Below, piece after piece: positions 1,307-28,037 of a DNA stretch of 64,000 bases (positions are counted from its first letter, which is position 1; each line of letters starts with the position of its first letter). Under the pieces are notes generated by a model that saw only the letters and a list, made by a program, of their open reading frames with translations, made no database searches and was not told the origin of the DNA. Both the position numbers and the translations under genes were made by a program. The DNA is from an uncultured Spirochaetota bacterium. GTDB taxonomy: Bacteria > Spirochaetota > UBA4802 > UBA5550. The DNA lies in NCBI GenBank assembly GCA_937872225.1, contig CALMRZ010000033.1, positions 16,315 through 80,314 of the forward strand, read 5' to 3'.

Positions 1307-3253
1307 TCATGACTGTTCCCGGTATAATCCGTCTATGATATCCTTGTAATTTTTCAGCACCACTTTCCGCTTGACCTTCAGGGTGGGCGTAAGCTCTCCC
1401 GTTTCCTGGGTAAAGGGACTAGCCAGGAGGGAGAAGTTCTTGATCTGCTCGACCCTGCCGAGGGGCTTGTTCAGCTCGTCGACGATCTCCCGGTACTTCT
1501 TCAGGACCTCGGGATGGGCGATCAGCTTCTTCGGATCCGTCTCGGTTATGCCCTTCGATTTCGCCCACTTGGTCAGTTCGGGGAAGCAGGGCACGATGAG
1601 CGACACGAGGAACTTCATCTGGTCGCCGATAACGGCCATCTGCTCGATGAAGGGATGGGCAACGAAGGCGCCCTCGATAACCTGCGGGGCCACGTTCTTT
1701 CCGCCGGCGGTGATGATGATGTCCTTTTTCCGGTCGGTGATGCGCAGGTAGCCGTCCTCATCGATCACGCCGATATCGCCGGTGTGGAACCAGCCGTCCC
1801 TGGACAGCACCTCCTTCGTGTCCTCCGGCCTGTTATAGTATCCCTTCATGACCTGGGGCCCGCGGATCAGGACCTCGCCGTCGTCGGCTATTTTACATTC
1901 GGTCCGGGGCAGCGGCGGGCCGCAGGTTCCCAGCTTGATCGGCTTGATATACCGGAAGGTGTTCAGGTGCGTAACCGGCGTGGTCTCGGTCAGGCCGAAG
2001 CCGAGGTGCACCTCGATGCCCATCGCCTGGAAGAACTCCCAGATGTTGTAGGCAAGGGGCGCTCCGCCCATCCCCATGACGATCATGCGGTCAAGGCCCA
2101 GGGCGGCCCGGAGCTTGGAGAAGATCAGCCTGTCGAACAGCTTGTACCTGAGGTTAAGCGGAAAGGGCAGCGAACGGTTCGCGGTGATATACGGCACGGC
2201 CTTCCTGCCGGCCTTCATGGCCGCGGCAAATAGCTTCTTCTTGCCTGCCGGCGCTTCCCGCAATTTTGACTGGATCCCTTCATATAATTTCTCCAGGACC
2301 CGGGGGACATAGACGCAGGCATAGGGACGAATGTCGACCAGGTCCTCCACGAGGGTCTCGGCGCCCCTGGTGTAGGCGATGGTTCCGCCCACCTTGATGA
2401 AGGAATTGTATCCGATGGTCCGCTCCAGGGAATGCGAAAGCGGCAGGAGGGAGACGCAGAGCGCCTCGAAGTTCTCCTTCGGGAAGGGATGGTGCTCGAG
2501 GAACTGCTCCACGTTCGCGACGAGGTTGTTGTGGGTGAGCATGACGCCCTTGGGGTTGCCCGTGGTCCCGGAGGTGTATATCAGGGTCGCCGTTTCTTCA
2601 AGATCGATTTTCCTCAACCGCTTGTCGATCTCCTTCAGGTTGAGGTTCTTGTTCCCGATGGCAATGATATCCGAGAACCTGGTGACCAGCTTGTCCTTGT
2701 AGTCGAGGTTGTCGAAGACGATGATCTCCTTGAGGTTTTTCAGGTTCTTCTTTTCAGACAGGAGGTTGTCCACCTGGAACTTGCCGGAGCACATGCAGAC
2801 CTTCGCCCTGGAATCGTTCAGGATGTAGGCCGCCTCCGGGCCGGAGTTGGTCGGGTAGATCGTGACATCGGCCGCGCCGATCGCCAGGGCCGCCAAGTCA
2901 GAGAAGCACCACTCCGGGCGGTTGTTGGAATATATGGCGATCTTATCACCGGGCCTGATGCCCTTCTTGATAAAGTATGACGCCAGGGCGTCCACATAAT
3001 CGTTGGATTCCGCGTATGTGTACTCCTTCCAGTTCTTGCCTTCACGGATCTTCACGAAGACCCTGTCTTGAAATTTCTCCGCGTTGTTTTTAAAAATTCC
3101 GGGAATTGTCGTTTCGTCATAAGGTTTAAATGTGCCCACAAGAGACCTCCAGCTATTTTGAAATTTGACCACAGGCTTTTCCAAGGATGCGGCGGACGGC
3201 GCCGCGCGGCGGCACCGCATAACCATTCTCGAAATATACATCCATCTTGTCAA
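1307..3253 (-). CDS. Long-chain fatty-acid--CoA ligase (AMP-dependent synthetase/ligase family). Start codon uncertain, with several in-frame starts 3218-3253.
   Basis: AMP-binding motifs YTSGTTGNPKGVMLTHNNL, TGDIGVIDEDGYLRITDRKKD and a C-terminal GEL..TLKVKRK tail; 648-aa ORF. Confidence 0.85.
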   Translation of the reverse strand: MTRWMYISRMVMRCRRAAPSAASLEKPVVKFQNSWRSLVGTFKPYDETTIPGIFKNNAEKFQDRVFVKIREGKNWKEYTYAESNDYVDALASYFIKKGIRPGDKIAIYSNNRPEWCFSDLAALAIGAADVTIYPTNSGPEAAYILNDSRAKVCMCSGKFQVDNLLSEKKNLKNLKEIIVFDNLDYKDKLVTRFSDIIAIGNKNLNLKEIDKRLRKIDLEETATLIYTSGTTGNPKGVMLTHNNLVANVEQFLEHHPFPKENFEALCVSLLPLSHSLERTIGYNSFIKVGGTIAYTRGAETLVEDLVDIRPYACVYVPRVLEKLYEGIQSKLREAPAGKKKLFAAAMKAGRKAVPYITANRSLPFPLNLRYKLFDRLIFSKLRAALGLDRMIVMGMGGAPLAYNIWEFFQAMGIEVHLGFGLTETTPVTHLNTFRYIKPIKLGTCGPPLPRTECKIADDGEVLIRGPQVMKGYYNRPEDTKEVLSRDGWFHTGDIGVIDEDGYLRITDRKKDIIITAGGKNVAPQVIEGAFVAHPFIEQMAVIGDQMKFLVSLIVPCFPELTKWAKSKGITETDPKKLIAHPEVLKKYREIVDELNKPLGRVEQIKNFSLLASPFTQETGELTPTLKVKRKVVLKNYKDIIDGLYREQS

Positions 3254-3404: not shown

Positions 3405-5474
3405 ATGACCAAGCTTGTGCCGGTTATCCTCGCGTTCCTCCCCCTGCTGCTCCGCGTGCCCGTCGCGGCTACTGAACCCGTTATAATCGAAGATACCCTG
3501 AAAGGAGAATCGATAGGCACGCACCTCGAATACTGCGAGGACCGCACCAGAAAAGCGACCATCGACGACATTGCATCGGCACGGCGCGGCGGCGCCTGCC
3601 TCTGGAAAAAATCCCGCAGGGTTTCACCGGGATTCGGCTACACGAAAAGCGCATACTGGATACGCTTCACCGTGACCAACAGGACGGCCCACGAAATATC
3701 ATGGTACCTGCAGCAGCGCTATCCCCTCATCAATTATCTCAGCCTCTACACGCCGTCGGGCGCGGGGGACGGCCGGTACCTGGAAATCAGGACCGGCACC
3801 CGGCTTCCCTTTTCCCAGAGGCCCCTGAACCACCGGACCTTCGTGTTCCCGCTGAAAACGGCGGCGGGCGCCGGCGACACGTACTACATGAGATACGAAA
3901 GCGAGGGCGCGATGAACATCACCCTCCACGTTTTTTCACCGTTTGAATTCAACGACGAGAGGGATTCCGAATCGATACTGATATGGGTGCTGGTCGGGAT
4001 CTTCCTCATAATGATATTATACAATTTCATTCTTTTTTTCTCCTTCAAGGAGATCGGCTATCTCTACTATGTTCTCTACCTCATATCATTCCTGGCGCTC
4101 TTCCTGTCGATCGAGGGGATCGCCTACCAGTACCTCTGGCCCGACGCAATCTGGTGGGGGACCTTCAACAAGCCGATATTCGTGAGCATGACCGTGTGCA
4201 CCATATGCCTCTTCATGCGCAATTTCGCGAAGACAGGGGAGCTCTTCCCGTATATAGACCGGGTCTTTATCGCCTTCATCGTCACCGGCATGCTGGCGGC
4301 CGTGATATCGCCCTTTATCAGCTTCCGCCTGGCCATGTCGGGCACGGTGTTCCTCACCGTCCTGAACGCCGCCTTTGCCCTGCCGGCAAGCGTCTACCTG
4401 TCGATACACAAATCGCGGCCGGGGCAGTTCATCCTGGCGTCGTTCTGCCTCTTCATGATCGGCGCCATCCTGTACCCGCTCAAGTCATTCGGCCTTATCC
4501 CGGACACCTCCGTGACCAACTACAGCATCGAGTTCGGCGCCGCCCTGCAGATCACCATCCTTTCCCTGGGCCTCGCGGACCGCATACACACGATGCGGAT
4601 AGAGCTGGAGCGCATAACCCAGACCCTGGAGGACAAGGTCAACGAGCGCACGGAGGAGCTGCTGTCCGCCAACGATGAAATGTCGGCCATGAATCACGCC
4701 CTCATCCAGGCCCGCGACGAGATATGGGGCGAGATGGAGCTCGCTAAAAAAATACAGACCGTCCTCCTCCCCGAGAACCCCCGGGTGTCCGGCTACGATA
4801 TATCGACCTACATGAAGCCCGCCCAGGAGGTCGGCGGGGACTATTACGACATCATCAACATCAAGGGGTGCGACTGGCTGGTTATCGGCGACGTCTCCGG
4901 CCACGGCGTCCCGGCGGGCCTCATCATGATGATGGTGCAGACGTCCATCCATTCAGTCCTGGTCGTGCAGCCGGACACCAGCCCCTCGGACCTGCTGGTG
5001 CAGGTGAACAGGATCATCTCGGAAAACATAAAGAAGCTCGGCGAGGAAAAGTACATGACCATAACGGTCCTGGCCTGCATACAGGACGGCAGGTTCTACT
5101 ATTCCGGCCTGCACCAGGACCTCATGATCTACCGGGCCAGGAGCGGGAACGTGGAGGTGTTTGAAACCGACGGGATGTGGCTCGGAATCTACAGCAATAT
5201 CCAGGGCATGGTGGGCGACAACACCCTTACCCTTGACGTGGGCGATACGCTTCTTCTGTTTACCGACGGAATAACCGAGGCCCGGAGAGCGGACAGCCCC
5301 GCGGGGCCGTCCGAATCCGAAAGGGACATGTTCGGCCAGGACCGGCTCCGGGACATACTGGCACGTCTCGGAAAAAACACCACGGAAGAGATCAAGGGCG
5401 GCATACTGAAGGAGCTGTCCTCGTATGTATGTCATGATGACGTTACCATGATGATCCTCAAGCGGAATGCGTAG
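3405..5474 (+). CDS. 7TMR-DISM receptor fused to a PP2C/SpoIIE-type Ser/Thr phosphatase (signal peptide, DISMED2-like extracellular domain, 7TM, coiled coil, PPM phosphatase).
   Basis: Signal peptide MTKLVPVILAFLPLLLRVPVAA; seven hydrophobic helices in the middle; C-terminal PP2C motifs GGDYYDI, IGDVSGHGVPAG, TDGITEA. Confidence 0.8.
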   Translation: MTKLVPVILAFLPLLLRVPVAATEPVIIEDTLKGESIGTHLEYCEDRTRKATIDDIASARRGGACLWKKSRRVSPGFGYTKSAYWIRFTVTNRTAHEISWYLQQRYPLINYLSLYTPSGAGDGRYLEIRTGTRLPFSQRPLNHRTFVFPLKTAAGAGDTYYMRYESEGAMNITLHVFSPFEFNDERDSESILIWVLVGIFLIMILYNFILFFSFKEIGYLYYVLYLISFLALFLSIEGIAYQYLWPDAIWWGTFNKPIFVSMTVCTICLFMRNFAKTGELFPYIDRVFIAFIVTGMLAAVISPFISFRLAMSGTVFLTVLNAAFALPASVYLSIHKSRPGQFILASFCLFMIGAILYPLKSFGLIPDTSVTNYSIEFGAALQITILSLGLADRIHTMRIELERITQTLEDKVNERTEELLSANDEMSAMNHALIQARDEIWGEMELAKKIQTVLLPENPRVSGYDISTYMKPAQEVGGDYYDIINIKGCDWLVIGDVSGHGVPAGLIMMMVQTSIHSVLVVQPDTSPSDLLVQVNRIISENIKKLGEEKYMTITVLACIQDGRFYYSGLHQDLMIYRARSGNVEVFETDGMWLGIYSNIQGMVGDNTLTLDVGDTLLLFTDGITEARRADSPAGPSESERDMFGQDRLRDILARLGKNTTEEIKGGILKELSSYVCHDDVTMMILKRNA

Positions 5475-5670: not shown

Positions 5671-7500
5671 ATGATACAATTCACCAAGGAACAGATCGAC
5701 CAGCTCGATAAATACTTTTACGAACCGCGGAACCTGGTGGACCTCTTCGAGGGAAGCGCGGCCGCATGGGCCGACCGCCCCGCCATCGGGCAGAAAGACC
5801 CCGGGACCAGGCAGTACGCATGGATAACCTACCGCCAGCTGGCGGAGAGGATCAACAATCTCCGCGGCGCCCTCGCCAGGCTGGGTCTCCGGAAAGGGGA
5901 GACCGTGGGGGTCATTCTCAGCAATTCCATTGAATGGTTCGTCATAGAAAACGCCGTGCACGGTCTGGGCGGCCGCTTCATTCCCATGTACGAAAAAGAG
6001 CTGGTGAAGAAATGGCAGTACATGATCAAGGACAGCTCCGTCAAGTTCCTCTTCGTGCGCAATGACGCCCTGCTCCAGAAGGTGAAGGGCTTTACCGCCG
6101 ATTGTCCCGAGCTGAAGGAGATATTCGTCGTATACGGCGAAGGCGAAAAATCACTGCCGGCCATGGAGAAGATGGGCGCCGGCAACCCGGTCCCGTCGTA
6201 TAAGCCGCACTGGTCCGAGGTGGCGGTCATCATCTACACGTCGGGAACCACGGGCGACCCCAAGGGCGTTATCCTTACCCACGGCAACCTGACCCATTGC
6301 TCCCAGTCAGGATGGAAAATATTCCCGGAGCTGAACGAAAATTCCGTCGCCCTCTCCATTCTTCCCTGGGCCCACTCCTACGCCATAAGCGCGGAGCTGC
6401 ACAACTTCCTCCAGTTCGGCGGCTCCATCGGCATCATGGAGTCCCTGGACACCCTGGGAGCCGATTTCCTCGCGGTGAGGCCCACGCACCTGATGTGCGT
6501 GCCCCGTGTTTTCAACAAGATATACAACGGCATACAGATGACCATGGAGGACGCCGGGGGCCTCAAGAAGAAACTCTTCGACGCGGCCTGCGCCGAGGCG
6601 AAACGGTGCCGCGACGGCAGGACAAGCCTGAAGCTCAAGCTTCTCGACAGGCTGGTCTTCTCGAAGATACGCGAACGATTCGGGGGCAGGCTCATCGGCT
6701 CCCTGACCGCAAGCGCCGTCATGAACCTTGACATCGCCCTTTTCTTCAAGGACATCGGCATCGACATATACGACTGCTACGGTCTTTCCGAGACGTCCCC
6801 GGCCATAACGATGAACTCGCCGATGCACGGCAACCGGATCGGCAGCGTCGGGAAGCCGGTCATGGACATGTTCGTGAAGCTCGACAAGTCCCGCATCGGG
6901 GAGGATTCACCCGACGGCGAGATCCTCGCCTACGGCGCCCACGTGATGATGGGCTACCTCAACAAGCCGGAGCAGACCGCCGCCATCATGACCGATGACA
7001 CCTGGAACGGGTTCCCGGGCATCAGGACCGGCGACCTGGGCCGCTTTGACGGTGACGGCTTCCTCTACGTGACCGGCCGGTACAAGGACGAGTACAAGCT
7101 CTCCAACGGCAAGTACGTGCATCCCGAATCGATCGAGATCGACATGAAGCTGGTGCCCCACGTGGCGAACGCCTTCGTCTACGGCGACGGGAAGGAATAC
7201 AACGTCGGGATCATCGTCCCCGATTTCGAAACAATCCGCAAGGACCACCACACGGCGAAATGGGCGTCAGTGAGCCCGGCCGACCTCGTCAACGACAATG
7301 AATTCAAGGATTTCCTGATCATCGAGGTGAACGACCACCTGAAAAAATCCTTCGCCGGCTACGAGATACCGAAAAAGTATATCATAACGGACCAAGACTT
7401 CACCCTGGAAAACGGCATGCTGACCCAGACACTCAAGGTGGTCCGCGCCGAGGTCATGAAAAAATACGGGGATGCGCTGAACAGGCTTTACACCGAATGA
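5671..7500 (+). CDS. Long-chain fatty-acid--CoA ligase (AMP-binding family), paralog of 1307-3253.
   Basis: YTSGTTGDPKGVILTHGNL and TGDLGRFDGDGFLYVTGRYKDEYKLSNGKYV motifs; RBS GGAGGA upstream of ATG 5671. Confidence 0.85.
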   Translation: MIQFTKEQIDQLDKYFYEPRNLVDLFEGSAAAWADRPAIGQKDPGTRQYAWITYRQLAERINNLRGALARLGLRKGETVGVILSNSIEWFVIENAVHGLGGRFIPMYEKELVKKWQYMIKDSSVKFLFVRNDALLQKVKGFTADCPELKEIFVVYGEGEKSLPAMEKMGAGNPVPSYKPHWSEVAVIIYTSGTTGDPKGVILTHGNLTHCSQSGWKIFPELNENSVALSILPWAHSYAISAELHNFLQFGGSIGIMESLDTLGADFLAVRPTHLMCVPRVFNKIYNGIQMTMEDAGGLKKKLFDAACAEAKRCRDGRTSLKLKLLDRLVFSKIRERFGGRLIGSLTASAVMNLDIALFFKDIGIDIYDCYGLSETSPAITMNSPMHGNRIGSVGKPVMDMFVKLDKSRIGEDSPDGEILAYGAHVMMGYLNKPEQTAAIMTDDTWNGFPGIRTGDLGRFDGDGFLYVTGRYKDEYKLSNGKYVHPESIEIDMKLVPHVANAFVYGDGKEYNVGIIVPDFETIRKDHHTAKWASVSPADLVNDNEFKDFLIIEVNDHLKKSFAGYEIPKKYIITDQDFTLENGMLTQTLKVVRAEVMKKYGDALNRLYTE

Positions 7501-7561: not shown

Positions 7562-8221
7562 TCAATTAGACTTCGACCATTCGATGGCGTATTTCATCAC
7601 GTCGGACACGCTTTTCAAATTGAACTTTTCCTTGATGTGGAACCGGTGGGTGTCGATCGTTTTCACGCTCACCTGGAGCTTTTTCGCTATGTCCGAGGCC
7701 TTGTAGCCTTCGCCCATGAGCATGAAAATCTCCAGCTCCCGGTCCGAGAGCATGTCCAGGGGCCCGGTCTTACCCTGGCGGTTCTGCAGCACGTTCATCA
7801 GGATCTTCGACTTCATGTTCTCGCTCAGGTAGATGCCGCCCTTCATGATCTGACGTATGGCGCACACGAGGGTTTTCGTCGCCTCGGATTTCATGACGTA
7901 GCCCATGGCGCCGGCCCTGATGGCCCGTTCAGAATATATCTCCTCGTCGCTCTGCGAAAGCACCAGGCACTTGATATCGGGATAGCGGGTGTGTATCGCC
8001 CTGGTCAGCTCGATGCCGTTGATGCTTTTCCTGAGGCCGATGTCTATGACGGCCACATCGGGCTCCGCTTTTTCGAAATTGGATATGGCGTCCGCGGCGT
8101 CCTCGGACACGCCGCAGACCTCCATGTCATCCTCGCGGTTAAGCAGAGACTCAAGGCCGTCCAGGACGATCCGGTGGTCGTCAACAATGTAGATCCTGGC
8201 CTTTTTCTTCAATCCCGTCAT
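7562..8221 (-). CDS. NarL/FixJ-family response regulator (REC + LuxR-type HTH).
   Basis: IYIVDDH...D at the N-terminus (receiver) and a C-terminal LSDRELEIFMLMGEGYKASDIAKKLQVSVKTIDTHRFHIKEKF (LuxR HTH). Confidence 0.9.
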   Translation of the reverse strand: MTGLKKKARIYIVDDHRIVLDGLESLLNREDDMEVCGVSEDAADAISNFEKAEPDVAVIDIGLRKSINGIELTRAIHTRYPDIKCLVLSQSDEEIYSERAIRAGAMGYVMKSEATKTLVCAIRQIMKGGIYLSENMKSKILMNVLQNRQGKTGPLDMLSDRELEIFMLMGEGYKASDIAKKLQVSVKTIDTHRFHIKEKFNLKSVSDVMKYAIEWSKSN

Positions 8222-8250: not shown

Positions 8251-10494
8251 TCAGTTCCCGCTCACCGCGGGTATCGTGCAGACAACCTCGGTCCCCCCAT
8301 CATGCCCCCTCCGGACGCTGAGGGACGACCCGATCATCCGCGCGCGGTATTTCATGATTTTCAATCCTATGCCCCGGCCCCCGTCCTCCCTGTCGGGGAT
8401 CCCCACCCCGTCGTCCTTTATGAGCAGCTGTATCTCGTCTCCCGTGCGGTGCACCCCCACCTGTATGGCATTGGCGCCCGAGTGCTTGACCGCGTTGATG
8501 ACGGCCTCCTGCATGATATAGTATATCTGCGAGTAATACATCCTGTTTATGATGTCGATGTCGCAGTTGATTTCGATGTGCAGCGTCACGCTGTACCTCC
8601 GCTCCATGAGCTTTTTCAGCTCCTGAAGCAGCGAGGCGAATCCGCCGTCGATGAAATCTATCCTCGAAAGGCTCTTGGCGATGTTCCGCACGTAGGCGAT
8701 CGCCTCGTTGATGAGGCCTTCTATCTCGAGGGCGGATTCCTTCGGCTTATTCTCCAAGTCACCCGCCAGGACGCTGCTTTTCAGGGCGATGCCGAAGAGC
8801 TTCTGTGCCAGGTTGTCATGCAGCTCGATGCCGATGGCGTTCCGCTCGTTTTCAGATATCTTGACCAGCTCCTGTTCAAACATGATCCGGTCGGTTATGT
8901 CGATGGAATAATAGACGATGCCCGGTTTCTGGTCCGACCCGGTCCGGTAGGGGAGCAGCGACGTTATCATGTACCTCCTGCCCGCCCGGGGGAATTCCTG
9001 CCACCGCTCGAACACGACCGGGTCGCCGGAAAAGCACGCTTCGAAATGCTCCCGGAGCGACGCTTCGTACTCCCCGGCGCCGAAAATGTCACCCACCGTC
9101 CGGTTGATGACGTCCCTGCGCTTCCGGCCATAGGCCTTCAGCAGGGCGTTATTCACCTCGATGAACCTCCCCCCGGCATCGATGAACGCCATGTGGTCCC
9201 TCGACTCCGACACGATATACTTGTAGATATTGAGGCTGTCTATGGCCCGGTCTTTCTCATGGTTGATCTCGACGAGGCTGATGTTCAGCTTTTCCAGGTC
9301 GTTATGCACCTGGGCGAACCGCGACGCGAGCACGGTCGCGAACACTATGGTCATGATGAAAAAGCCCACGATCAGGAACGGGTCCGAAGCGAACTGGTTG
9401 AAGAATATCGGGATGCTCAGCAGGAAGGCGGCGGTATACACCGACACCCCCAGGAGGATCCTCCTGGAATAGGGCTGCCTGTCCCTGACGGCGCGCATGC
9501 ACAGATACATGCAGAAGACGACCACGATGACGACGGTCATCATGAAGGGCCCGTACAGGTATTTCTGGTACAGATGGCTTTTCCCGCTGACGAGAACCTC
9601 GAGCAATATCGACGCCATGAGCAGCGCATGCAGGACCATCAGGCCATTGGCAAAAAGCTGCTCCCCTTTGCGTATGTTAAAAAAATGCGTGATAAAATTC
9701 AGGAAGGACAATGACGCCACGATCGACGCGAAATAGGTCGCAATGATAAAGGCTATCTGGTTGTCGAGAATGAAGAACAGTATCCCGTCGTACCCCATGA
9801 TCCATATCCCCAGGGACAGCGCGAGAAGCGAGAAATGGAGATAGTACTTTTCCTTTTTCCTGTTCAGGAAGGTGATGATGAAATAGATAAAAAGGAAAAT
9901 ATTGATGGAAGACAGGAAGCTGTTCCATAGTATGAACAGGTTCCACTTCTGCTGCACCGCCTTGTAGCCACCGAAAAAGATGGGATAGCAATAGCCGCCG
10001 AGGTTGTTCAGGCTGCCGGTCCTGAGGACCAGGCTGTTTGCGCCCGCGACGATCGAAGACCTGATGACCGGAACAAGGGCCGGCTTTCCCGCGATGGGCG
10101 GCGACATGCCGTTCCCGTCGAAGGGCCTTGTCTCGAATATCAGCTTCCCGTTGAAATAAACCTGCGTGCCCCTGCTCTGCCATGGAAGAAACACCGCGTA
10201 ATCGTCCGAACCCCGGGGGATATACAGTTCCATGCCGTACCAGGCATTGCCCTCATAGTCCCGGTAATCGGGATTATCGGGCCAGTTGTCATAGGGGGAA
10301 AGGAGCGCGCCGCCCTTCCTGATGCCGACGAGTTCCCTGTTGTCAAGGTCATCCCGGGCGCTGAAGCACCAAAGCCGGGGCAGCTCATGGGCCTGGCGGG
10401 GCGACGCGATCCGCACGGTGCACTCGTCGGCATAGGCGAGACCGGCAAACAAGATGCATGAAATGAGAACGATGGTTCTACAGGGCATCATCAT
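8251..10494 (-). CDS. 7TMR-DISM sensor histidine kinase (signal peptide, DISMED2-like periplasmic domain, 7TM, PAS, HisKA_3, HATPase_c), partner of the adjacent LuxR-type regulator. The ORF-track N-terminal extension to 10638 is rejected; start placed at the MMMPCRTIVLISCILFAGLAYA signal peptide.
   Basis: HisKA_3 H-box AIGIELHDNLAQKL; HATPase N/G boxes QEAVINAVKHSGA, DDGVGIP, GIGLKIM; PAS-like segment; multi-TM core. The extension upstream of MMM is Arg-rich low-complexity in another gene's frame. Confidence 0.85.
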   Translation of the reverse strand: MMMPCRTIVLISCILFAGLAYADECTVRIASPRQAHELPRLWCFSARDDLDNRELVGIRKGGALLSPYDNWPDNPDYRDYEGNAWYGMELYIPRGSDDYAVFLPWQSRGTQVYFNGKLIFETRPFDGNGMSPPIAGKPALVPVIRSSIVAGANSLVLRTGSLNNLGGYCYPIFFGGYKAVQQKWNLFILWNSFLSSINIFLFIYFIITFLNRKKEKYYLHFSLLALSLGIWIMGYDGILFFILDNQIAFIIATYFASIVASLSFLNFITHFFNIRKGEQLFANGLMVLHALLMASILLEVLVSGKSHLYQKYLYGPFMMTVVIVVVFCMYLCMRAVRDRQPYSRRILLGVSVYTAAFLLSIPIFFNQFASDPFLIVGFFIMTIVFATVLASRFAQVHNDLEKLNISLVEINHEKDRAIDSLNIYKYIVSESRDHMAFIDAGGRFIEVNNALLKAYGRKRRDVINRTVGDIFGAGEYEASLREHFEACFSGDPVVFERWQEFPRAGRRYMITSLLPYRTGSDQKPGIVYYSIDITDRIMFEQELVKISENERNAIGIELHDNLAQKLFGIALKSSVLAGDLENKPKESALEIEGLINEAIAYVRNIAKSLSRIDFIDGGFASLLQELKKLMERRYSVTLHIEINCDIDIINRMYYSQIYYIMQEAVINAVKHSGANAIQVGVHRTGDEIQLLIKDDGVGIPDREDGGRGIGLKIMKYRARMIGSSLSVRRGHDGGTEVVCTIPAVSGN

Positions 10495-10679
10495 ATAATC
10501 GATACACCGGCATGGAGATACGTGTCTTTGCTGTTCACGGTCAGGCCGGCGAAGCCGCACGGTACGCTGATCGTCCCGGCGGCGAGCCTGCTCGCGATGC
10601 GCCCATGGGCGGGACAACTGTAACGCACCAGGTCGCATTGCTCAAGAACTATAACGGCTGTTTTTCGATATTTTTGCAT
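10491..10679 (-). CDS. Candidate 62-aa Cys-containing small protein (MQKYRKTAVIVLEQCDLVRYSCPAHG...) whose TGA overlaps the histidine-kinase ATG (ATGA coupling). Function unknown.
   Basis: Stop/start overlap with the signal-peptide start of the kinase read directly from the sequence; weak RBS; no recognisable homology. Confidence 0.3.
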   Translation of the reverse strand: MQKYRKTAVIVLEQCDLVRYSCPAHGRIASRLAAGTISVPCGFAGLTVNSKDTYLHAGVSII

Positions 10680-10913
10680 GTCTCTCTTTTATCCCTTGTT
10701 GTTGCGCGGGGTCCTTTCTCATCCATGGTGCGGGTTTTATTCCTGATTATGCGGGAACAATCCTCTCCGGCGGGCTTCACGGGAAGCCCTGACAGGCAAA
10801 GCCGGGATGAAACCCGGCCGGGAGGGGCTCTTCGTTATAATACAGTAGCGAACTTGAGGCGGAGAACAGCTGTCCCAGGAATCACGCAACAGCGTGTTTG
10901 CCGACCGTGACTT

Positions 10914-11123
10914 CTAATAGGCCCACATGACCGGGGCATCACGATGTTTTGACCTGGCGTTCGCCAGGATGGAGCCGCACTCGGCGCCGGTCACCGTAAA
11001 GCCTTTGCTGCGGAACCACGCGGACAGCTCATCTGCTGAAAAGCGTTTCAGGTTCTTGATGAACTCCTGCGCGAGAGCCATGTTCCGGGGCATCAGTTCC
11101 ATGAAGTCTATATAGGTCCCCAT
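10914..11123 (-). CDS. Small (69 aa) Nif11-like domain protein, paralog of 15353-15577. Possible leader-peptide-like or signalling small protein.
   Basis: Strong RBS GGAGGA; pattern ..EF.K.LK....ADELSAWF.SKGF.V...EC resembles the Nif11 fold (S/D-x-EE-L..W/A..KGF.x..EE); ~44% identical to the ORF at 15353; AT-rich promoter upstream and GC hairpins downstream. Confidence 0.55.
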   Translation of the reverse strand: MGTYIDFMELMPRNMALAQEFIKNLKRFSADELSAWFRSKGFTVTGAECGSILANARSKHRDAPVMWAY

Positions 11124-11448
11124 ACAATCCTCCGGTAAATTGTAGTATAATTAATAATAGCAAAATTTGAAAATAATGATAATAGGCAATATCCCCCAAA
11201 CCGGCATAATACTTTTTGGAAGTTTACGGTCAGTAAACTCTTTATCATCCAAGCGGCCTGCCGCGGCATCCGTAAAGAATAACGATGAGGCCATCCCGGA
11301 TCACCGCCGTCTGCCGGCGGGGGGCGGGGCCGTTCCGGTCAGTATGACCGGCACGGTCCCATCCGGTAGATTCGGAGGCCACTTGGACAGCCCCATCGTT
11401 GGCGATTATCTGCTGGAATGCGACAAATAAAAAAACAACCCTCCCTGA

Positions 11449-12504
11449 TCAATATCTTAACGAAAAAATACCGCACTGGGTGCCCGACGCCGGGATGATG
11501 CACAGGGCCAGGTTCCCCTTCTTGAAATACCCCTTTTCCCTGGCCCGCCACATGGAAAGGGGAAGGCTGACCGACGCCACGTTGCCGTATTCCGCGTAAA
11601 AACCTGACTCCGGATAGCGTACCGTGATGGAAGAATCAGCGAGGAACGACAGTATCGAATCCCGGGCGAGCTTTCCCACATCATGGAAAAAAAGATTATC
11701 GTAGATGACCCCGGTGCTGTTAATTTCATGGAAGTAATTTTTCACGCAGTCCCGCGTAACCACGTATGCCGACTTGAAAAGGTCCGGGGTGTGCGTGTAC
11801 AGCTTGTACCGCTCGCCCAGGGTATAGTTGAGGCCGATGGTGCAGAGATGGTACTGGCCGTCCGACAGCTCGTAGGAGAATTTCATGTGGTTTCCGTCGC
11901 CGGCATAGTTCATATCGCCGGTCGCCCCGAGGATGACCGCGCCTGCTCCGTCGCCGATGGTAAGGGAGCCGAACTTCCACGCCAGTTCGTCCCTGGTCTT
12001 GCAGACCATGTCGGCCCAGTCGAAGGTCCGCTCTCCCGCCGCGACCAGGATACGGCGGTACTGGCCCGAACGGATCAGGGCATGGCCTATCTCGATCGAT
12101 TTTATGAAGCTGGTGCACGCGTCCTGCGTGTCGATCACGTTCGCGTTGAGGGCCTGCAGCTTGTGGCGGAGCACATGGGCCGTGGCGGGCTCCACAAAGG
12201 CCTTGGACATGCCGGTGAATATGATAAGATCGAGGTCTCCCGCCTCGAGCCCCGCGTCTTCCAGGGCCGCGAGCGAAGCCCGGTATGCAATGTCCGTGCA
12301 GTATTCATCCTCATCGCACCAGTAGCGGGTGACATTTCCCGCCTTGGCGAGGCGCTCCCTGGCAAGGGCCAGGATATCGTCAAGGTCCTTCGCGTTCAGG
12401 TACGGTTCGCTTTTCCGCCTCATCATCAGCAGCACGTCATCATTGGTGATTTTTCTCTTCGGAATGTAAATGCCCATTCCTTGTATTTCAGAAGTAACTG
12501 TCAT
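11449..12504 (-). CDS. 3-oxoacyl-ACP synthase III-like condensing enzyme (FabH/KAS III family; could be a FabH-like signal or secondary-metabolite synthase). Start at MTVTSEIQGMGIYIP uncertain (alternatives 12525, 12477).
   Basis: Thiolase-fold KAS III architecture: candidate active-site Cys in DTQDACTSF, C-terminal FFHDVG and GNVASVSLPL (His/Asn-region analogues), ~350 aa. Confidence 0.75.
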   Translation of the reverse strand: MTVTSEIQGMGIYIPKRKITNDDVLLMMRRKSEPYLNAKDLDDILALARERLAKAGNVTRYWCDEDEYCTDIAYRASLAALEDAGLEAGDLDLIIFTGMSKAFVEPATAHVLRHKLQALNANVIDTQDACTSFIKSIEIGHALIRSGQYRRILVAAGERTFDWADMVCKTRDELAWKFGSLTIGDGAGAVILGATGDMNYAGDGNHMKFSYELSDGQYHLCTIGLNYTLGERYKLYTHTPDLFKSAYVVTRDCVKNYFHEINSTGVIYDNLFFHDVGKLARDSILSFLADSSITVRYPESGFYAEYGNVASVSLPLSMWRAREKGYFKKGNLALCIIPASGTQCGIFSLRY

Positions 12505-12558
12505 GTCTGTTAACACCCGTTGCAATGATAGCGCGTGGGGTTTCCCGGGGGAGACCGG

Positions 12559-14790
12559 TCACGCATGTTCTATGTTGAAATAATTTACGGCCTCTTTTAA
12601 TTTTTCAGCAAGGCTCGACAGGTTGGTCGCGCTTGCCGAAAGCTCCTGGGTTTCAGAGGCATTCGACTGGGACAGTTCATTGATGGCCGTTATGGCCTTG
12701 ACGATCTCGTAATTGGCGTTCTTCTGCTCCTGCGACGCCGTTTTAATCTCCTCGGACCGGTCCCGTATCTCATGGGCGGCCGAATTCACCTCAGCGTTGG
12801 TGGCGTTCTGGCTGTTCATGAATTCCGCGACCTGGTTCATTAAGGTGTCTATCGAATTGACGCCCGTGATGATCTCGCTGATAAGGTTGATCGTGGTCGC
12901 GACGTTCGCCATCCCCGTTTCGACGTCGGCCGTATTGTTCTTGATCAGGCGGTCGATGTCCATGATGCTTTTCGACGTCATTTCAGCGAGCTTCGAGATC
13001 TCATCGGCGACGACGGCGAACCCCCTCCCCGCGGTCCCGGCGCGGGCGGCCTCGATGGCCGCGTTCAGCGAGAGGAGATTGATCTGGTCGGATATGCCGT
13101 TGATTATTTCGACCACGTTAGTCATCTGGCCGGAACTGGCGATGATGTTGTTCATCGTGGCCTGCATGTTCATCAGGGCCTTTTCACCGCCCTCGGCCCG
13201 GCGCGTGATCCGGTATGTCTGTTCCAGGGTCTCCCTTGTTTTCACGTTCATCTCGTCGATGATGCGTGAAAGCCGCTCCATCTTCAGGATAAGCTCGTTC
13301 AGGTTCATGTACTGGTACTGGGCGGCGCTGGAAATGCTGTCGATGCCCGCCGACACCTGTTCGACGGTCGCCGTGATCTCCTCCGAGTTCGACGCCTGGT
13401 TCTGGGCGTTATTGGAGAAGACCGAGGTCGAATTCGACATCTGCTCGGACGAGCTTGCCAGATCGATGGAAGTGGTCTTGATGCTCCTGATGATTTCGCG
13501 CAGGATGACAAGGAGCTTGTCTATGTTAAACACGATCTCGCCGACCTCGTCGAAGGTCGTTATCACCAGGTTCTGCGAGATCTCGCCGCTGGCCAGTTTG
13601 GTGACGGCCTCCTTCACCTGCGACAGCGGGGCTATGCGCTGCGTAATGATGAAATAGGTGACCCCTCCCATCATGAGTATGCCCGCGAGGAGGAACGCCA
13701 GCATGAAAATCGTGGTCTGGAAGATCCTTTCTTCTATCTCGGATTCGTAGATGCTCGAAAAGACAAAGACCCTGTTTTTCAGAGACCGGCGGACCGCCAT
13801 ATAGCGCCAGTTTTTTCCGTCGTCAAAGCGCAGGTGGTGGACCGTGCCGGCACCGAGTATCTCCCCGCCGTAGCGTTCCACAAACGCTCCATTGATATCC
13901 AGCCGCGACCCGCTTTGGGTGAGGACGGCGAAGTCCCTGTCCGCGATGGTGATGGTGCCGGTTTTGCCCGTCTCGATGTTCTTCAGCACGCGGGCCCGAA
14001 ACGGCTCCGAGCCGATCGCCCTCCGCACGTCTTTCCCGTCCCGGCTTTTCCCGACTTCAGCGAGATAATCGTCCATCTCCCTGACGGCGGTCCCGGCGAC
14101 GATGTCCATCTTGTCAAGATACGACTCCTTCAGCTGGTAATACGAAAGGTTATAGACCACCGTGACCATGATGATGCCGAGGAAGGCCATGATGGTGATG
14201 ACGGAAATGGACAGGTACCGTCCCATCCTGCTTTTCGCGTCAAAGACCGAACCCGAAATCCGGGAAAAAAGTCCGAACCTGGCTATACGGTTCAGGAGAT
14301 ACTCGGGGACAAGGTAAAAGATAATCCCCGACGCAATGGTGTTGATGACCAGCAGCATCCCCATGTTGAAGGTGTCTGTGAATGAAGGATGGGACGTTAT
14401 ATTAAGGATGACGATGATGGAGCTGACCGTGAGGACCCACCGGACCATGGTATCGATGGCGTGGAGCTTCGGGAGTTTCTGGTACCGGTCGTAAGCGGCG
14501 GCATAGTCCTCATCGGATACCTGTTCGCCCCGCAGGACTGAACTGAAATAATTAAGGATAGGCCGGGCTTTTTTCCGCGACGATATGACCGATATGACGA
14601 AGGACAGCGCCATGACCAGGGCCGCAATCATGAAAAAAACCAGGAGGTCCCTCTGCTGGAGATTGATGACCAGCACGACAACGACCATGGCCGTGGGGGA
14701 CAGCACCAGAAACGCCACCCCCTCGGTAAAAATATAGAAGGACCTGAAGAAAGACCGCAGATACCCGTATGCTTTTTCAGCGCCGTCCAT
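12559..14790 (-). CDS. Methyl-accepting chemotaxis protein with an N-terminal multi-TM sensor module, HAMP and MCP signalling domain.
   Basis: Highly conserved MCP tip [29 protein letters not shown]; several N-terminal hydrophobic helices; paralog of 20280-22478. Confidence 0.9.
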
Positions 14791-15352
14791 TCAAGACATC
14801 TCCTCAGCAAATAAGCCAGGTCGCGAATTTTATCCCGTGCACCCTTCCATCTCCTTTCTCCCCTCCCGGTATGTAATATCATCCCGTTATCTCCAAACGG
14901 CAATAGGCGGGACATCCTACTTGCGCATAGGAATTTTACTTACCTCAAGCATCACGGATTGCATTACCGCAGGATCCCCGGCGGAGAACCATCAGTCAGC
15001 AGGGGCCGGGGACATGCAACCGGCGGCGGGGAGGGCTGGCCGCCTTCAACCGGGTTCTTCTATTATATAGGGGAAAAACCTATGGGACAGTAGGTGTATT
15101 TATCGTTTAAAAATAGGGGTTCCTCCCTATTTATAACTATTACCCATGAGATTATATTACATAGAGCGCTATTCTGGATTTGTCATTTCGAACTACGCTT
15201 GCGGGGTGGGAAATCTTGCTGCATCAAATCCTGTCAAGATTTCTCCTCATCCCGGAATGCCGGGATCCGTCGCAATGACTGCTTCGCCACAAGCCTATTA
15301 ATGATAATGATGCGCCTTTCTTACAGACAGAAATAAACAAGGGGAGGGAGCA

Positions 15353-15577
15353 ATGGCACAGTACATAGACTTCATTCAGGCCATGCCCGCCGACAGGGTC
15401 CTTTCCAGGGAGTTCAAACAGATGATAAAAAGCTCATCAGCGGAGGAATTGTCTCTCTGGTTCGAAATCAAGGGCTTCGAGGTTGACGTGGATGAATGCA
15501 GGCTCATCATCAAAAACAACAGGAACAATTTTTTCCTGATGGAAGAGGCGATTCCGTTTCTATTTCTCACCCGTTAA
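15353..15577 (+). CDS. Small (74 aa) Nif11-like domain protein, paralog of 10914-11123.
   Basis: RBS GGAGGGAG; YIDF..MP....L..EFKQ.IK.SSAEELSLWFEIKGFEVDVDEC pattern; paralogy with the ORF at 10914. Confidence 0.55.
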   Translation: MAQYIDFIQAMPADRVLSREFKQMIKSSSAEELSLWFEIKGFEVDVDECRLIIKNNRNNFFLMEEAIPFLFLTR

Positions 15578-15745
15578 GGGCAAAACCGGCCGACGCTGCC
15601 ATGATCATTCACCGCCCCCGGGTTACACGGCCGCCTTCACATCATACCCGCCTTCAAAATCCGGTTGACAGGCGCCCCGCGCCTCTGTACAAGCAGAGGA
15701 GCACATGATCATCTTCCGCGAAATTACAGCATCGAGGGTTCAGCC

Positions 15746-16723
15746 ATGGCCAAGTTCAAGCCGCAGTTCGGCAGGCTTCTGTTCATCGACAAAAAGCTCC
15801 AGTCAGGCGCGTATCCCAACAGCACCAGCCTCGCACGGGAGTACGAGATAAGCCCGCGCACCATCCTCCGCGACATTGACTTCATGCGGGACATGCTCGA
15901 CGCCCCCATCGATTACGACAAGGAGAAGCGCGGCTTCTACTACACGGAGAAGAACTACCGCCTCCCCGGCATCGCCATCCGCGAAAGCGATCTCTTCGCC
16001 ATCTGCATAGCGGAGAGGGCCCTTGAGCAGTACGCCAACACGCCCCTCTATGACAAGCTCTCGTCGGTGTTCGAGAAGATACGGTCGTACCTGCCGGACA
16101 GCATCACCGTGCGGCCCGGCTGGATAGACAACCGATTCACCTTTCTCCAGGAAAGCTTCACCGCCATCGACCCCGCCATATGGGAAACCGTGGCTGACGG
16201 GCTCCGCACCGCCCGGCGGGTCGATATAACCCACCAGAAGGCGGGCGGCGAAACGACGCGCCGGAAGGTCGCGCCGTATCACATGGTGAACTACCGGGGC
16301 GAATGGTACCTGGTGGGCCACTGCAGCGTCAGGAAAGCCGTGGTGCGCTTCGCCATGTCCCGCATCAGGAGCGCCGAGATCACTGCCGAGACCTTCACCG
16401 TGCCGGAGGACTTCGATTTCCAGAAATACCTGGGATCGCATTTCGGCATCATGACCGAAGACGAAGAGCACGCGGTGAAGATCGAGTTCTCCCCGGCGCA
16501 GGCCCCTTACGTGGAGGAGCGCACCTGGCACAGCGGCCAGACCGTGACCAGGAGCGGGGACGGGTCCGTTGTCCTTTCCTTCACCACTAATTCCCTCTTC
16601 GAGGTGAAGCGGTGGGTCCTGGCGTGGGGCGCCGACGCCCGCGTGCTGGCCCCCGAGGCGCTGGCCCGCATGGTCCGTGAGGACCTGGCCGCGGCCCTTG
16701 CCCGCTACCGCGAACGATCCTGA
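15746..16723 (+). CDS. WYL-domain transcriptional regulator (wHTH, WYL, C-terminal extension; PafBC/BrxR/CapW-like architecture). The ORF-track TTG start at 15665 is rejected in favour of ATG 15746.
   Basis: N-terminal wHTH (LLFIDKKLQSG...SLAREYEISPRTILRDIDFM), WYL motif GEWYLVGHC, ~325 aa. Confidence 0.75.
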   Translation: MAKFKPQFGRLLFIDKKLQSGAYPNSTSLAREYEISPRTILRDIDFMRDMLDAPIDYDKEKRGFYYTEKNYRLPGIAIRESDLFAICIAERALEQYANTPLYDKLSSVFEKIRSYLPDSITVRPGWIDNRFTFLQESFTAIDPAIWETVADGLRTARRVDITHQKAGGETTRRKVAPYHMVNYRGEWYLVGHCSVRKAVVRFAMSRIRSAEITAETFTVPEDFDFQKYLGSHFGIMTEDEEHAVKIEFSPAQAPYVEERTWHSGQTVTRSGDGSVVLSFTTNSLFEVKRWVLAWGADARVLAPEALARMVREDLAAALARYRERS

Positions 16724-26267: not shown

Positions 26268-28037
26268 ATGACAGAGAAAAACCCCATCAACATTGACCGC
26301 CTTATAGACCTCGGGTCCTTCGAGGTGACCGGCGCGGAGAAGCAGCAGTTCGAGGGCGAGCTTGCCGATTTCCTGGAGTATGCCCGGGTCATCAACGGCG
26401 CGCCGCAGCACCTGCCGCCGGCAAGCCACGCCGTTGACAAGGAGCAGCTCCTCCGCGCGGACGAGGCCTCGCCATGGAAGGAGCGCGAGTCCCTCATCGG
26501 CAACGCGCCGGCGCTGCAGGGCACGAGCTACCTGGTGCCGCCCCTGGCGGGAATCTCCGGCACCGCCAGGGAGCAGGAGCCGCGGACGGGCAAACCGGGA
26601 AGCGGCGACTACGAGGTCGTCATCGGCCTGGAGGTACACGCCCAGCTGAACACCTCGACCAAGCTTTTCTGCTCATGCCCGACCTCGTTCGGGAGCGACC
26701 CCAACAGCAACACCTGCCCGGTATGCTCCGGCCAGCCCGGGGCGCTCCCCGTTCTGAACCGCGAGGCAGTGTCCATGGCAATCATGGCCGGCCTGGCCAT
26801 GGGGTGCGCTATCAACGGGCGTTCCCTCTTCGCGCGGAAGAACTATTTCTACCCGGACCTGCCCAAGGGCTACCAGATATCGCAGTTCGAGGAGCCCATC
26901 TGCAGCGGCGGCGTCGTGGAAATCGAGCTGGATAAGGCCACAAGGAAAATACGCCTCAACAGGATACACGTTGAGGAGGACGCCGGCAAACTGGTGCACG
27001 TGGGCGCCCCGGGGATCTGGGGCTCCAAGGCGAGCGCGGTCGACTACAACCGCTCCAGCGTTCCACTCATCGAAATCGTGTCCGAGCCGGACATCTCTTC
27101 GCCGGCCGAAGCCCGCGAATTCATGGTGATGCTCAGGGCCATCCTGGTGACCCTGGGGATATGCAACGGCAACATGGAAGAAGGAAACCTCCGGTGCGAC
27201 GCAAACGTGTCCCTGAGAGAACGGGGGGACACCGAGCTGGGCGTCAAGGTGGAGATCAAGAACATGAACTCCCTGAAGGCGATCGAGCGCGCCCTCGCCT
27301 ACGAGATAACCCGCCTCGAGCAGATGAAGCGCGCCGGCACGCCCATAGAGCAGGAGACGCGGCTCTGGGACGACAGCTCCCAGAAGACGGCCCTGATGCG
27401 GAGCAAGGAGGAGTCCCACGACTACCGCTATTTCCCGGACCCGGACCTGCTGCCCCTCACCGTAACGGACGAATGGATCGAGTCTGTGCGCAGGGCGCTC
27501 CCGCCGATGCCCCTGGAGCGGAAAAACAGGTACGAGCGCGAATTCTCCTTCACCGAATCCGAGGCCCGGCTCTTCATGGTCAATCCGGCGTACGCGGCAT
27601 TCTTCGAGAAAGCGCTGCTCTCCTACGGCAATGCCCGGAACCTGGCAAACTGGCTCTTCTCCGAGCTCCTTTCCCACGAGGACGATTTCGACCGGCTCCA
27701 TGTCACGCCGGAGGACTTCGCGAAATTTTTAAAGAAGATAGACAGCGGAGAGATCAGCGGCAGGCAGGGCAAGGACATCCTCCGCAGGGCCTTTGCGGAC
27801 AGGAAAGGGATCATTGAAATCATTGAAAGCGAAGGCCACGCCCAGATCACGGACCGCGCTTCCATCGAAAAGGCGGTGGACAACGTCATCGCGTCCCACC
27901 CGGACCAGGTCGCGGAATACCGGAGCGGCAAGACCCGGGTGCTGGGCTACCTCGTCGGCGCGGTCATGAAGGCCACCGGCGGCAAGGCCAACCCGGCCCT
28001 CGTGAACGAGGTCCTCACCGAGAAACTGAAGGGTTGA
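26268..28037 (+). CDS. gatCB: In-frame fusion of GatC (residues ~1-108) with GatB (the remainder) of the tRNA-dependent amidotransferase.
   Basis: GatC-like N-terminus (IDRLIDLGSFEVTGAEKQQFEGELADFLEYARVIN...SHAV...NAP...YLVPP) followed by the GatB start VVIGLEVHAQLNT..KLFC.C, and a C-terminal YqeY/GatB tail. Confidence 0.8.
   Translation: MTEKNPINIDRLIDLGSFEVTGAEKQQFEGELADFLEYARVINGAPQHLPPASHAVDKEQLLRADEASPWKERESLIGNAPALQGTSYLVPPLAGISGTAREQEPRTGKPGSGDYEVVIGLEVHAQLNTSTKLFCSCPTSFGSDPNSNTCPVCSGQPGALPVLNREAVSMAIMAGLAMGCAINGRSLFARKNYFYPDLPKGYQISQFEEPICSGGVVEIELDKATRKIRLNRIHVEEDAGKLVHVGAPGIWGSKASAVDYNRSSVPLIEIVSEPDISSPAEAREFMVMLRAILVTLGICNGNMEEGNLRCDANVSLRERGDTELGVKVEIKNMNSLKAIERALAYEITRLEQMKRAGTPIEQETRLWDDSSQKTALMRSKEESHDYRYFPDPDLLPLTVTDEWIESVRRALPPMPLERKNRYEREFSFTESEARLFMVNPAYAAFFEKALLSYGNARNLANWLFSELLSHEDDFDRLHVTPEDFAKFLKKIDSGEISGRQGKDILRRAFADRKGIIEIIESEGHAQITDRASIEKAVDNVIASHPDQVAEYRSGKTRVLGYLVGAVMKATGGKANPALVNEVLTEKLKG

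Follow-up and report, generated by a model that had tools for sequence, protein, structure and literature searches.

A stretch of 64,000 nucleotides from an uncultured Spirochaetota bacterium (assembly GCA_937872225.1, contig CALMRZ010000033.1, positions 16,315 to 80,314 of the forward strand), referred to here as the window, carries two genes for small paralogous proteins, A and B, on either side of a signalling locus. The present analysis concerns these two genes, the protein family to which they belong and the link between gene A and the receptor gene that follows it. The two open reading frames (ORFs) are the following:

10914..11123, minus strand: ORF A, 69 amino acids (aa), a putative remote Nif11-like four-helix N-terminal domain with a short tail ending in ...RDAPVMWAY.
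15353..15577, plus strand: ORF B, 74 aa, paralogous to A, the tail (...NNRNNFFLMEEAIPFLFLTR) being longer, conserved and hydrophobic and lacking a terminal Tyr.

Both ORFs lie at the coordinates given in a preliminary description of this DNA, and its estimate of about 44% identity between the two proteins was fair: BLASTP aligns them at 47% identity over 58 aa (E 4e-18), and a full-length alignment gives 41%. A and B are genuine genes and genuine paralogues. Compared with orthologues in related Spirochaetota metagenome-assembled genomes (MAGs), their ratio of nonsynonymous to synonymous substitution rates (dN/dS) is 0.06-0.11 at dS values of 0.5-2.5, indicating purifying selection, and their start codons and ribosome-binding sites are conserved across the orthologous loci. 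A reading of either gene as a spurious ORF is thereby ruled out. As had been described, each has a strong ribosome-binding site of its own (GGAGGA at 11128-11133 on the minus strand for A; GGGGAGGGAG at 15341-15350 for B) and an AT-rich promoter, seen as dips in GC content to 0.31 at 11100-11199 (A) and 0.34 at 15100-15199 (B) with promoter-like hexamers in both. A search of the six-frame translation with a hidden Markov model (HMM) matched only A and B, with no third paralogue in the window. Rfam gave no match at E<=1 over 10300-15800, and the long intergenic regions are therefore not explained by a riboswitch or leader RNA.

AlphaFold2 models predict four helices and a compact fold for the N-terminal domain. 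In the model of A, the helices span residues 4-10, 15-27, 30-40 and 46-62 and the tail (61-69) is disordered; the tail of B is likewise disordered, with a predicted local distance difference test (pLDDT) score of 77 for B and of 73-77 across both models. The tails had been likened to hypervariable core peptides, which is not so within either orthologue group, where ...RDAPVMWAY (A) and ...LMEEAIP[FY]LFL (B) are among the best-conserved parts of the proteins. Furthermore, the tails of A and B can be aligned to each other and have a common A-P-hydrophobic-hydrophobic-aromatic pattern.

To place the two proteins in a wider context, a profile of A, B and their orthologues (alignment A1) was run against 1.84 billion representative proteins. 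It retrieved 88 of these, representing at least 88 clusters at 50% identity, all of them stand-alone proteins of 62-88 aa. With E-values of 1e-36 (A) and 2e-44 (B) against this profile, both are members of the family, and all named members come from Spirochaetota. The preliminary description had missed a near-invariant Tyr at the C-terminus, found in 84 of the 90 sequences of the family alignment (A2) at a background Tyr frequency of 3.5%, while the 10-15 residues preceding it are highly variable between lineages. The family is laid out as a folded four-helix N-terminal domain of about 57 aa and a disordered, lineage-variable tail of 10-15 aa that nearly always ends in Tyr. A follows this rule (...MWAY). 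B, ending in ...EEAIPFLFLTR, is among only six of the 90 sequences without a terminal Tyr, and its clade is the chief exception. The family is covered by no model in NCBIfam or Pfam, and full-text literature searches brought up neither a paper connecting Nif11-like proteins with 7TMR-DISM receptors and radical S-adenosylmethionine (SAM) enzymes nor a report of Nif11 proteins in Leptospira.

The Nif11-type pattern attributed to both proteins by the preliminary description lacks statistical support in the two proteins themselves. The HMM search against TIGR03798 and PF07862 that it had proposed gave no significant Nif11 match for A or B. Pfam returned no match for either protein at E<=10 (the gathering cutoff of PF07862 being 23.8 bits), and TIGR03798 (leader_Nif11, NCBIfam) matched B only, at 13.5 bits (E 0.066) against a cutoff of 32.3, with no match for A. 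Although both curated cutoffs are missed, a remote similarity is seen at the family level. When the 90 members of A2 were scanned singly against NCBIfam and Pfam, TIGR03798 was the most frequent family (26/90 at E<=1, best 2e-4) and PF07862 the top Pfam family (18/90 at E<=1, best 5.6e-5); the relatives P0122 and P0108 reach 19.5 and 18.2 bits on PF07862 over model positions 4-47 of 48, below the cutoff of 23.8. Because Nif11 is the commonest sub-threshold match over the 90 relatives, we read the N-terminal domain as a remote Nif11 relative, at family level only. Sequence-profile searches against the PDB gave nothing significant; troponin C was matched at E 0.2 and a 'Nif11 domain-containing protein' (9zn4) at 12.7 bits (E 0.79). 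A resemblance to EF-hands was rejected, the scores being non-significant.

These results bear on the question of whether A and B could be classical Nif11-leader precursors (N11P, TIGR03798) of peptides that are ribosomally made and post-translationally modified (RiPPs), with lanthionine, cyclodehydratase or radical-SAM maturases and a peptidase-ABC exporter encoded elsewhere in the genome. The weak TIGR03798 match of B, the place of Nif11 as top sub-threshold family across the relatives and the UniRef name 'Nif11 family protein' carried by some of them would all agree with this, and N11P precursor genes can be distant from the genes for modification and export (Haft et al. 2010, PMC2887384). 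However, it is an improbable identity, with scores under both curated cutoffs. The hallmark of N11P is a leader ending in a Gly-Gly type cleavage motif (ELSDEELEAVAGG-like), followed by a hypervariable core with abundant Cys, Gly and Ser (PMC2887384); A and B both lack a GG/GA motif and a Cys-rich tail, the region of homology has no Gly-Gly at its end, and their tails show no abundance of Cys, Ser or Gly. LanM, YcaO/cyclodehydratase and peptidase-ABC exporters (PCAT) were found neither among the larger ORFs of window positions 1-46 kb (Pfam) nor near the small gene in any of nine distant loci described below. Moreover, the tails are conserved within orthologue groups, and the sole family-wide constant, the terminal Tyr, is not an N11P feature.

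The nine distant loci are those of Thiospirochaeta perfilievii (L005), Leptospira semungkisensis (L006) and Spirochaeta isovalerica (L007), and of MAG or metagenome contigs (L008-L011, L021, L022). A gene for a 7TMR-DISM_7TM receptor lies directly downstream of the small gene, on the same strand, in all nine, at spacings from a 41-nt overlap to a 380-nt gap, most of them 107 nt or less. The receptors have SpoIIE/PP2C outputs, are hybrid kinase-REC-SpoIIE proteins or, in L011, consist of a kinase with a GerE-type regulator. All-versus-all clustering of the genes in L005-L011 yielded three families present in seven of seven loci, one comprising the small proteins, one the receptors and one radical-SAM enzymes of some 330 aa, and an enzyme of this last family occurs in 8/9 of the distant loci. 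More specifically, this enzyme has a CX3CX2C motif and a C-terminal CX2CX5C...C motif, the latter typical of peptide maturases with auxiliary clusters. Four distant loci encode a second enzyme of about 600 aa, whose L005 copy (601 aa) scores 452 bits on TIGR03975 (cutoff 282), the B12-type RiPP maturation radical SAM C-methyltransferase; all four also have a gene for a SAM methyltransferase, and a papain-like peptidase is encoded in three of the four. In three loci without the C-methyltransferase, the radical-SAM enzyme is accompanied by a conserved protein of some 310 aa belonging to no Pfam or NCBIfam family (L006 5177-6100, L010 4313-5293, L011 6903-7832), a candidate for a new maturation component. 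A FabH-like identity for these proteins was considered and rejected, as they have no BLAST match to the window and fall into no Pfam or NCBIfam family.

The family at large is a RiPP-like cassette joined to a receptor. The earlier judgement that the locus is not a classical RiPP cluster is sound insofar as local maturation and export genes are absent, but the family itself is RiPP-like, with radical-SAM enzymes in 8/9 distant loci and the TIGR03975 type in four. A role as a peptide or small-protein signal, which had been suggested from the neighbouring sensor kinase, gains support from the 9/9 linkage to 7TMR-DISM receptors; the mechanism set out further below is a proposal.

Several loci hold more than one copy of the small gene. 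Tandem copies are found 5' of the receptor in L006 (7561-7746) and L008 (7157-7363); of the additional copies, that of L008 has a Tyr end (...QKIGLYY) and that of L006, with 61 aa, does not (...SGLAI), and a fragment of a papain-like peptidase lies between the two L008 copies. Two loci come from one related Leptospirales MAG, CAZZHU01: a B-type gene in L015 and, in L022, another family member, Tyr-ended and 5' of a gene for a 7TMR-DISM hybrid kinase-REC-SpoIIE protein. A genome may thus have several family loci.

The same linkages speak to a reading in which A and B are small helix-turn-helix-like DNA-binding proteins, or otherwise unrelated housekeeping proteins, with signalling neighbours that are incidental. 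Foldseek searches of both AlphaFold2 models against the PDB returned nothing at E<=0.001, and the best matches, none of them significant, are small helical DNA-binding domains (StbA at E 0.57, then PadR, ArgR and EspR). Receptor linkage in 9/9 loci, a radical-SAM enzyme in all seven clustered loci and the terminal-Tyr rule would be unexpected for such proteins, and we regard this as very improbable.

In the window, the genes and features around A are the following:

8251..10494, minus strand: 7TMR-DISM sensor histidine kinase with a signal peptide, a periplasmic domain of about 190 aa, seven transmembrane helices (7TM), PAS, HisKA_3 and HATPase domains (Pfam).
7562..8221, minus strand: NarL/LuxR-type response regulator (REC and GerE; Pfam), partner of the kinase, with a homologue in L011.
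11449..12525, minus strand: FabH/KAS III-like enzyme directly upstream of A, probable start M8 at 12504, ACP_syn_III 46 bits (Pfam).
12559..14790, minus strand: methyl-accepting chemotaxis protein (MCP) upstream of the FabH-like gene and divergent from B, MCPsignal 116 bits, syntenic in relatives.
11134..11240, minus strand: AT-rich promoter region of A, with promoter-like hexamers and a block kept in orthologous loci, AACTTCCnAAAAGTATTA ... CCTATTATC ... TATACT.
10795..10818, minus strand: stem-loop GCCGGG-TTTCAT-CCCGGC followed by TTT, about 95 nt past the stop codon of A.

Pfam agrees with the preliminary description on the neighbours it had named (MCP, FabH-like enzyme, 7TMR-DISM kinase and, next to B, a WYL regulator). 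The first gene to follow A on this strand is that of the kinase, across a spacer of about 419 nt; its ORF is open to 10638 and probably starts with the ATG at 10494 (747 aa, matching the call in L001). Its sensor half is the best match in the window to the receptors of the distant loci, with E-values of 1e-38 to 5e-50 over about 380 aa that include the periplasmic part. A full-length homologue in L011 (E 2e-85) is followed by a homologue of the regulator, and the layout of that locus is the small gene, the kinase and the GerE regulator as in the window, plus the radical-SAM enzyme. A is the canonical, receptor-linked member of the family.

The difference from L011 lies in the enzymes. Homologues of the radical-SAM enzymes, the methyltransferase and the 310-aa partner were searched for in the whole window, with no BLASTP match at E<=1e-3. 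No radical-SAM enzyme appeared in the Pfam scan of the larger ORFs of positions 1-46 kb, and no homologue was found in the related loci L016-L020 when these were searched with radical-SAM queries. The claim that no radical-SAM, cyclodehydratase or peptidase-transporter gene is adjacent was confirmed by Pfam and, for the radical-SAM enzymes, by BLASTP as well. With no local maturase homologue, modification of A in this organism is unsupported, although a maturase acting in trans may be encoded elsewhere in the genome.

The enzyme that does adjoin A is FabH-like. On NCBIfam FabH-type models the protein scores 95-113 bits, in all cases below the cutoffs, and the Cys/His/Asn triad is apparently present (ACTSF, FFHD, YGNVAS; read by eye from the translation and not from an alignment). 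Its gene adjoins the A-type gene wherever upstream sequence is covered, in L001-L004, L012-L014, L016, L017 and L019. When related loci were sought with the narrower alignments A1 and A4, all those retrieved came from the lineage of the window. The FabH-like gene adjoins the counterpart of A even in L004 and L019, two related loci in which the gene at the position of A encodes an A-type protein 48-50% identical, with tails that differ (...TTMIGGY and ...NMLMAGY) and keep the Tyr end. The neighbouring genes of L004, the longer locus, are still 77-87% identical to those of the window despite the change at this position, and the difference at A resembles an allele-like switch.

With a conserved promoter block and a covarying hairpin of its own, A looks like a transcription unit separate from the kinase gene, which lies about 419 nt downstream. 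The stem-loop between A and the kinase, which a simple terminator scan missed, is kept by compensatory changes in L014 and L017 and is a probable terminator or attenuator.

Beyond the regulator, a second 7TMR-DISM receptor (7TMR-DISMED2, 7TM and SpoIIE) is encoded at 3405-5474 on the plus strand and matches the distant receptors only in the 7TM and SpoIIE regions. On either side of it lies a gene for an acyl-adenylate-forming, AMP-binding enzyme (1307-3253, minus; 5671-7500, plus). Taken with the FabH-like gene, this arrangement suggests that the signalling genes are surrounded by a lipid or acyl-metabolite theme.

The reading we favour, to which we would give an even chance, is that A is the signal precursor or partner of the adjacent receptor, with a Tyr-ended tail that is modified and a product that cues the 7TMR-DISM receptor. 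The small protein would act as a leader or scaffold, its Tyr-ended tail would be modified, and a released peptide or Tyr-derived molecule would then be the cue for the adjacent receptor. In the window, A would have kept its terminal Tyr and its receptor link, with the radical-SAM genes gone and the FabH-like enzyme just upstream as a putative participant.

Several observations weigh against this proposal, the lack of local maturase homologues among them. The window showed neither a signal peptide or Gly-Gly site nor an exporter or dedicated leader protease. The nine distant loci have no peptidase-transporter and a papain-like peptidase in only three, and export is pure conjecture on our part. 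The 419-nt spacing between A and the kinase, with its terminator-like hairpin, differs from the close spacing (41-nt overlap to 107 nt) of most distant loci. The adjacency of the FabH-like gene and A is confined to one rather narrow, generally syntenic lineage and perhaps has no functional meaning, and the FabH-like protein is no more divergent where the tail of A switches (81% identity, L004). The strong conservation of the tails among orthologues of A and of B would suit a folded or interaction role as well as a core peptide. Finally, B breaks both the Tyr rule and the receptor linkage.

In the main rival reading, A and B are intracellular accessory or regulatory subunits and not exported signals. 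Here, the folded N-terminal domain and the tail would attach to the receptor's cytoplasmic side or to some other protein, and the radical-SAM enzyme, where present, would modify the Tyr inside the cell in a mycofactocin-like manner. A compact four-helix domain is predicted, none of the loci showed a signal peptide, an exporter or a Gly-Gly site, conservation of the tails among orthologues is strong, and the system persists in the window without a local maturase. In addition, the best sub-threshold match of the L006 radical-SAM enzyme is the mycofactocin maturase (TIGR03962, 70 bits), which acts on a C-terminal Tyr. Against this, the tails vary between lineages with only the Tyr fixed, the papain-like peptidases (three loci) and the RiPP-class C-methyltransferase (four loci) point to processing of a released product, and the periplasmic domain belongs to the receptor part whose conservation goes specifically with the small gene. 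We hold the intracellular role to be a real possibility of clearly lower probability than the precursor or partner role preferred here.

Gene B differs from A in its surroundings and its history. Two further features belong to its locus:

15746..16723, plus strand: WYL/WCX transcriptional regulator downstream of B, ORF from 15665 with a probable start ATG at 15746 (Pfam WYL, WCX, HTH_11).
15067..15130, plus strand: two palindromes 5' of B, ATAGGGGAAAAACCTAT (15067-15083) and ATAGGGGTTCCTCCCTAT (15113-15130).

The WYL regulator gene follows B in L001-L004, L012-L014 and L016. B is absent from L017, where the gap between the MCP and WYL genes is only 364 nt, and in L015 it follows an AMP-binding gene instead. 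The arrangement in which the pair flanks the locus, as first described, is thus seen in the window but is lineage-specific. Nor are the two genes equivalent, although they had been treated alike: A is canonical and receptor-linked, whereas B is derived, dispensable and next to the WYL regulator. B is a lineage-specific later duplicate that has lost the Tyr end and gained a conserved tail and a control region of its own, and it may be a variant or antagonist of A.

The two palindromes are the only matches to ATAGG-N4-10-CCTAT in 64 kb, against 0.2 expected, and are conserved in L001, L014 and L004. They are a candidate operator, at which the WYL regulator or some other factor may act. Between the conserved promoter-like block and the ribosome-binding site of B lies a segment of some 150 nt (about 15150-15305) that is absent in L001, L014 and L004, and a 112-nt copy with 72% identity is found at L012 19010-19120; the segment may be a small mobile or repeat element.

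Elsewhere in the window, a 961-aa ORF (23369-26254, plus strand) combines a GatA-like amidase, an OB anticodon-binding domain and a class II tRNA synthetase domain of the Asp/Asn/Lys type, and the next gene (26268-28037, plus strand) encodes GatC fused to GatB. The same fusion, of 962 aa, is found in a related MAG (L004 from 12649). By their domain content, the two genes look like a covalently fused transamidosome.

To our knowledge, 7TMR-DISM receptors are widespread and their ligands largely unknown. A small-protein gene hard-wired to the receptor gene offers a concrete candidate ligand or modulator for them, and the proposal, if true, would provide the first ligand class for these orphan receptors as well as a case of peptide-type cell-cell signalling in spirochaetes, controlling cyclic di-GMP (through SiaABCD-like modules) or transcription. 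It points to peptide-based signalling in Spirochaetota including Leptospira, on which literature searches found nothing. For RiPP mining, the family would add a precursor type with a Nif11-like scaffold and a near-invariant C-terminal Tyr that current Nif11 and N11P models miss. Full cassettes in the cultured Thiospirochaeta perfilievii, Spirochaeta isovalerica and Leptospira semungkisensis make experiments feasible. The window itself holds a cassette without the radical-SAM enzymes in which the precursor-receptor pair is kept, representing either an orphaned system or an enzyme swap.

Four known systems invite comparison. With N11P, such as the prochlorosin precursors (PMC2887384), the family has in common an N-terminal region of some 50 aa that is long, helical and protein-like, a consistent sub-threshold HMM similarity that extends along the entire Nif11 model, a short C-terminal extension and, at the family level, an adjacent TIGR03975 RiPP radical-SAM C-methyltransferase. 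It differs in scoring under both cutoffs, in having no Gly-Gly site, no Cys/Ser/Gly-rich core and no peptidase-ABC exporter here, and in a tail that ends in a near-invariant Tyr. Furthermore, it is tied to a 7TMR-DISM receptor rather than to LanM or a cyclodehydratase, and its named hosts are spirochaetes, whereas N11P are mostly cyanobacterial.

Mycofactocin (MftA/MftC; Haft 2011, PMC3023750) likewise derives from a ribosomal peptide in which a C-terminal Tyr is the sole strictly conserved tail feature, with a partner radical-SAM enzyme that carries an auxiliary Fe-S motif, and TIGR03962 is the top sub-threshold match of the L006 enzyme. However, that match reaches 70 bits against a cutoff of 265, the leader of the present family is unrelated, and MftB, MftD, MftE and MftF were found in none of the loci. 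The partners here are membrane receptors and not nicotinoprotein dehydrogenases, and the window has no radical-SAM enzyme.

On the output side, SiaABCD of Pseudomonas is a module of PP2C phosphatase, partner switch and diguanylate cyclase. Four distant loci resemble it in having a membrane PP2C (SpoIIE) receptor followed by genes that encode SiaC and DUF6272 and GGDEF proteins. These three are without homologues in the window, where the output of the receptor consists of a histidine kinase and a NarL-type regulator.

The comparison closest to the window itself is with the ComQXPA system of Bacillus. ComP and ComA are of the same types as the multi-transmembrane HisKA_3 kinase and the REC-GerE regulator of the window, and ComX has no signal peptide and a lineage-variable tail around one fixed aromatic residue, a Trp. 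Four adjacent minus-strand genes of the window (12525-11449, 11123-10914, 10494-8251 and 8221-7562) encode an enzyme, a prepeptide-like protein, a kinase and a regulator, the order of comQ-comX-comP-comA on one strand (PMC4008528). The likeness extends to a prepeptide without a signal peptide, to a variable tail with one fixed aromatic residue (Trp in ComX, Tyr in the A family) and to an allele-like prepeptide switch between related genomes. In contrast, the window enzyme is FabH/KAS III-like (ACP_syn_III) and not a ComQ isoprenyl transferase, the sensor is of the 7TMR-DISM type, the prepeptide has a folded, putatively Nif11-like domain, and the enzyme of the wider family is a divergently encoded radical-SAM protein; A matched no family in Pfam or NCBIfam, ComX included. 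A comQXPA-like organization is therefore offered as a hypothesis, in which only position ties the FabH-like enzyme to A. Taken furthest, and only tentatively, the comparison leads to a new class of ribosomal signals that would combine a Nif11-like scaffold, a Tyr-ended tail modified in most lineages by a radical-SAM enzyme, alone or together with a B12-dependent C-methyltransferase, and sensing by the co-encoded 7TMR-DISM receptors. In the lineage of the window, the maturase would have been swapped for a KAS III-like enzyme, giving a comQXPA-like system with pherotype-like alleles.

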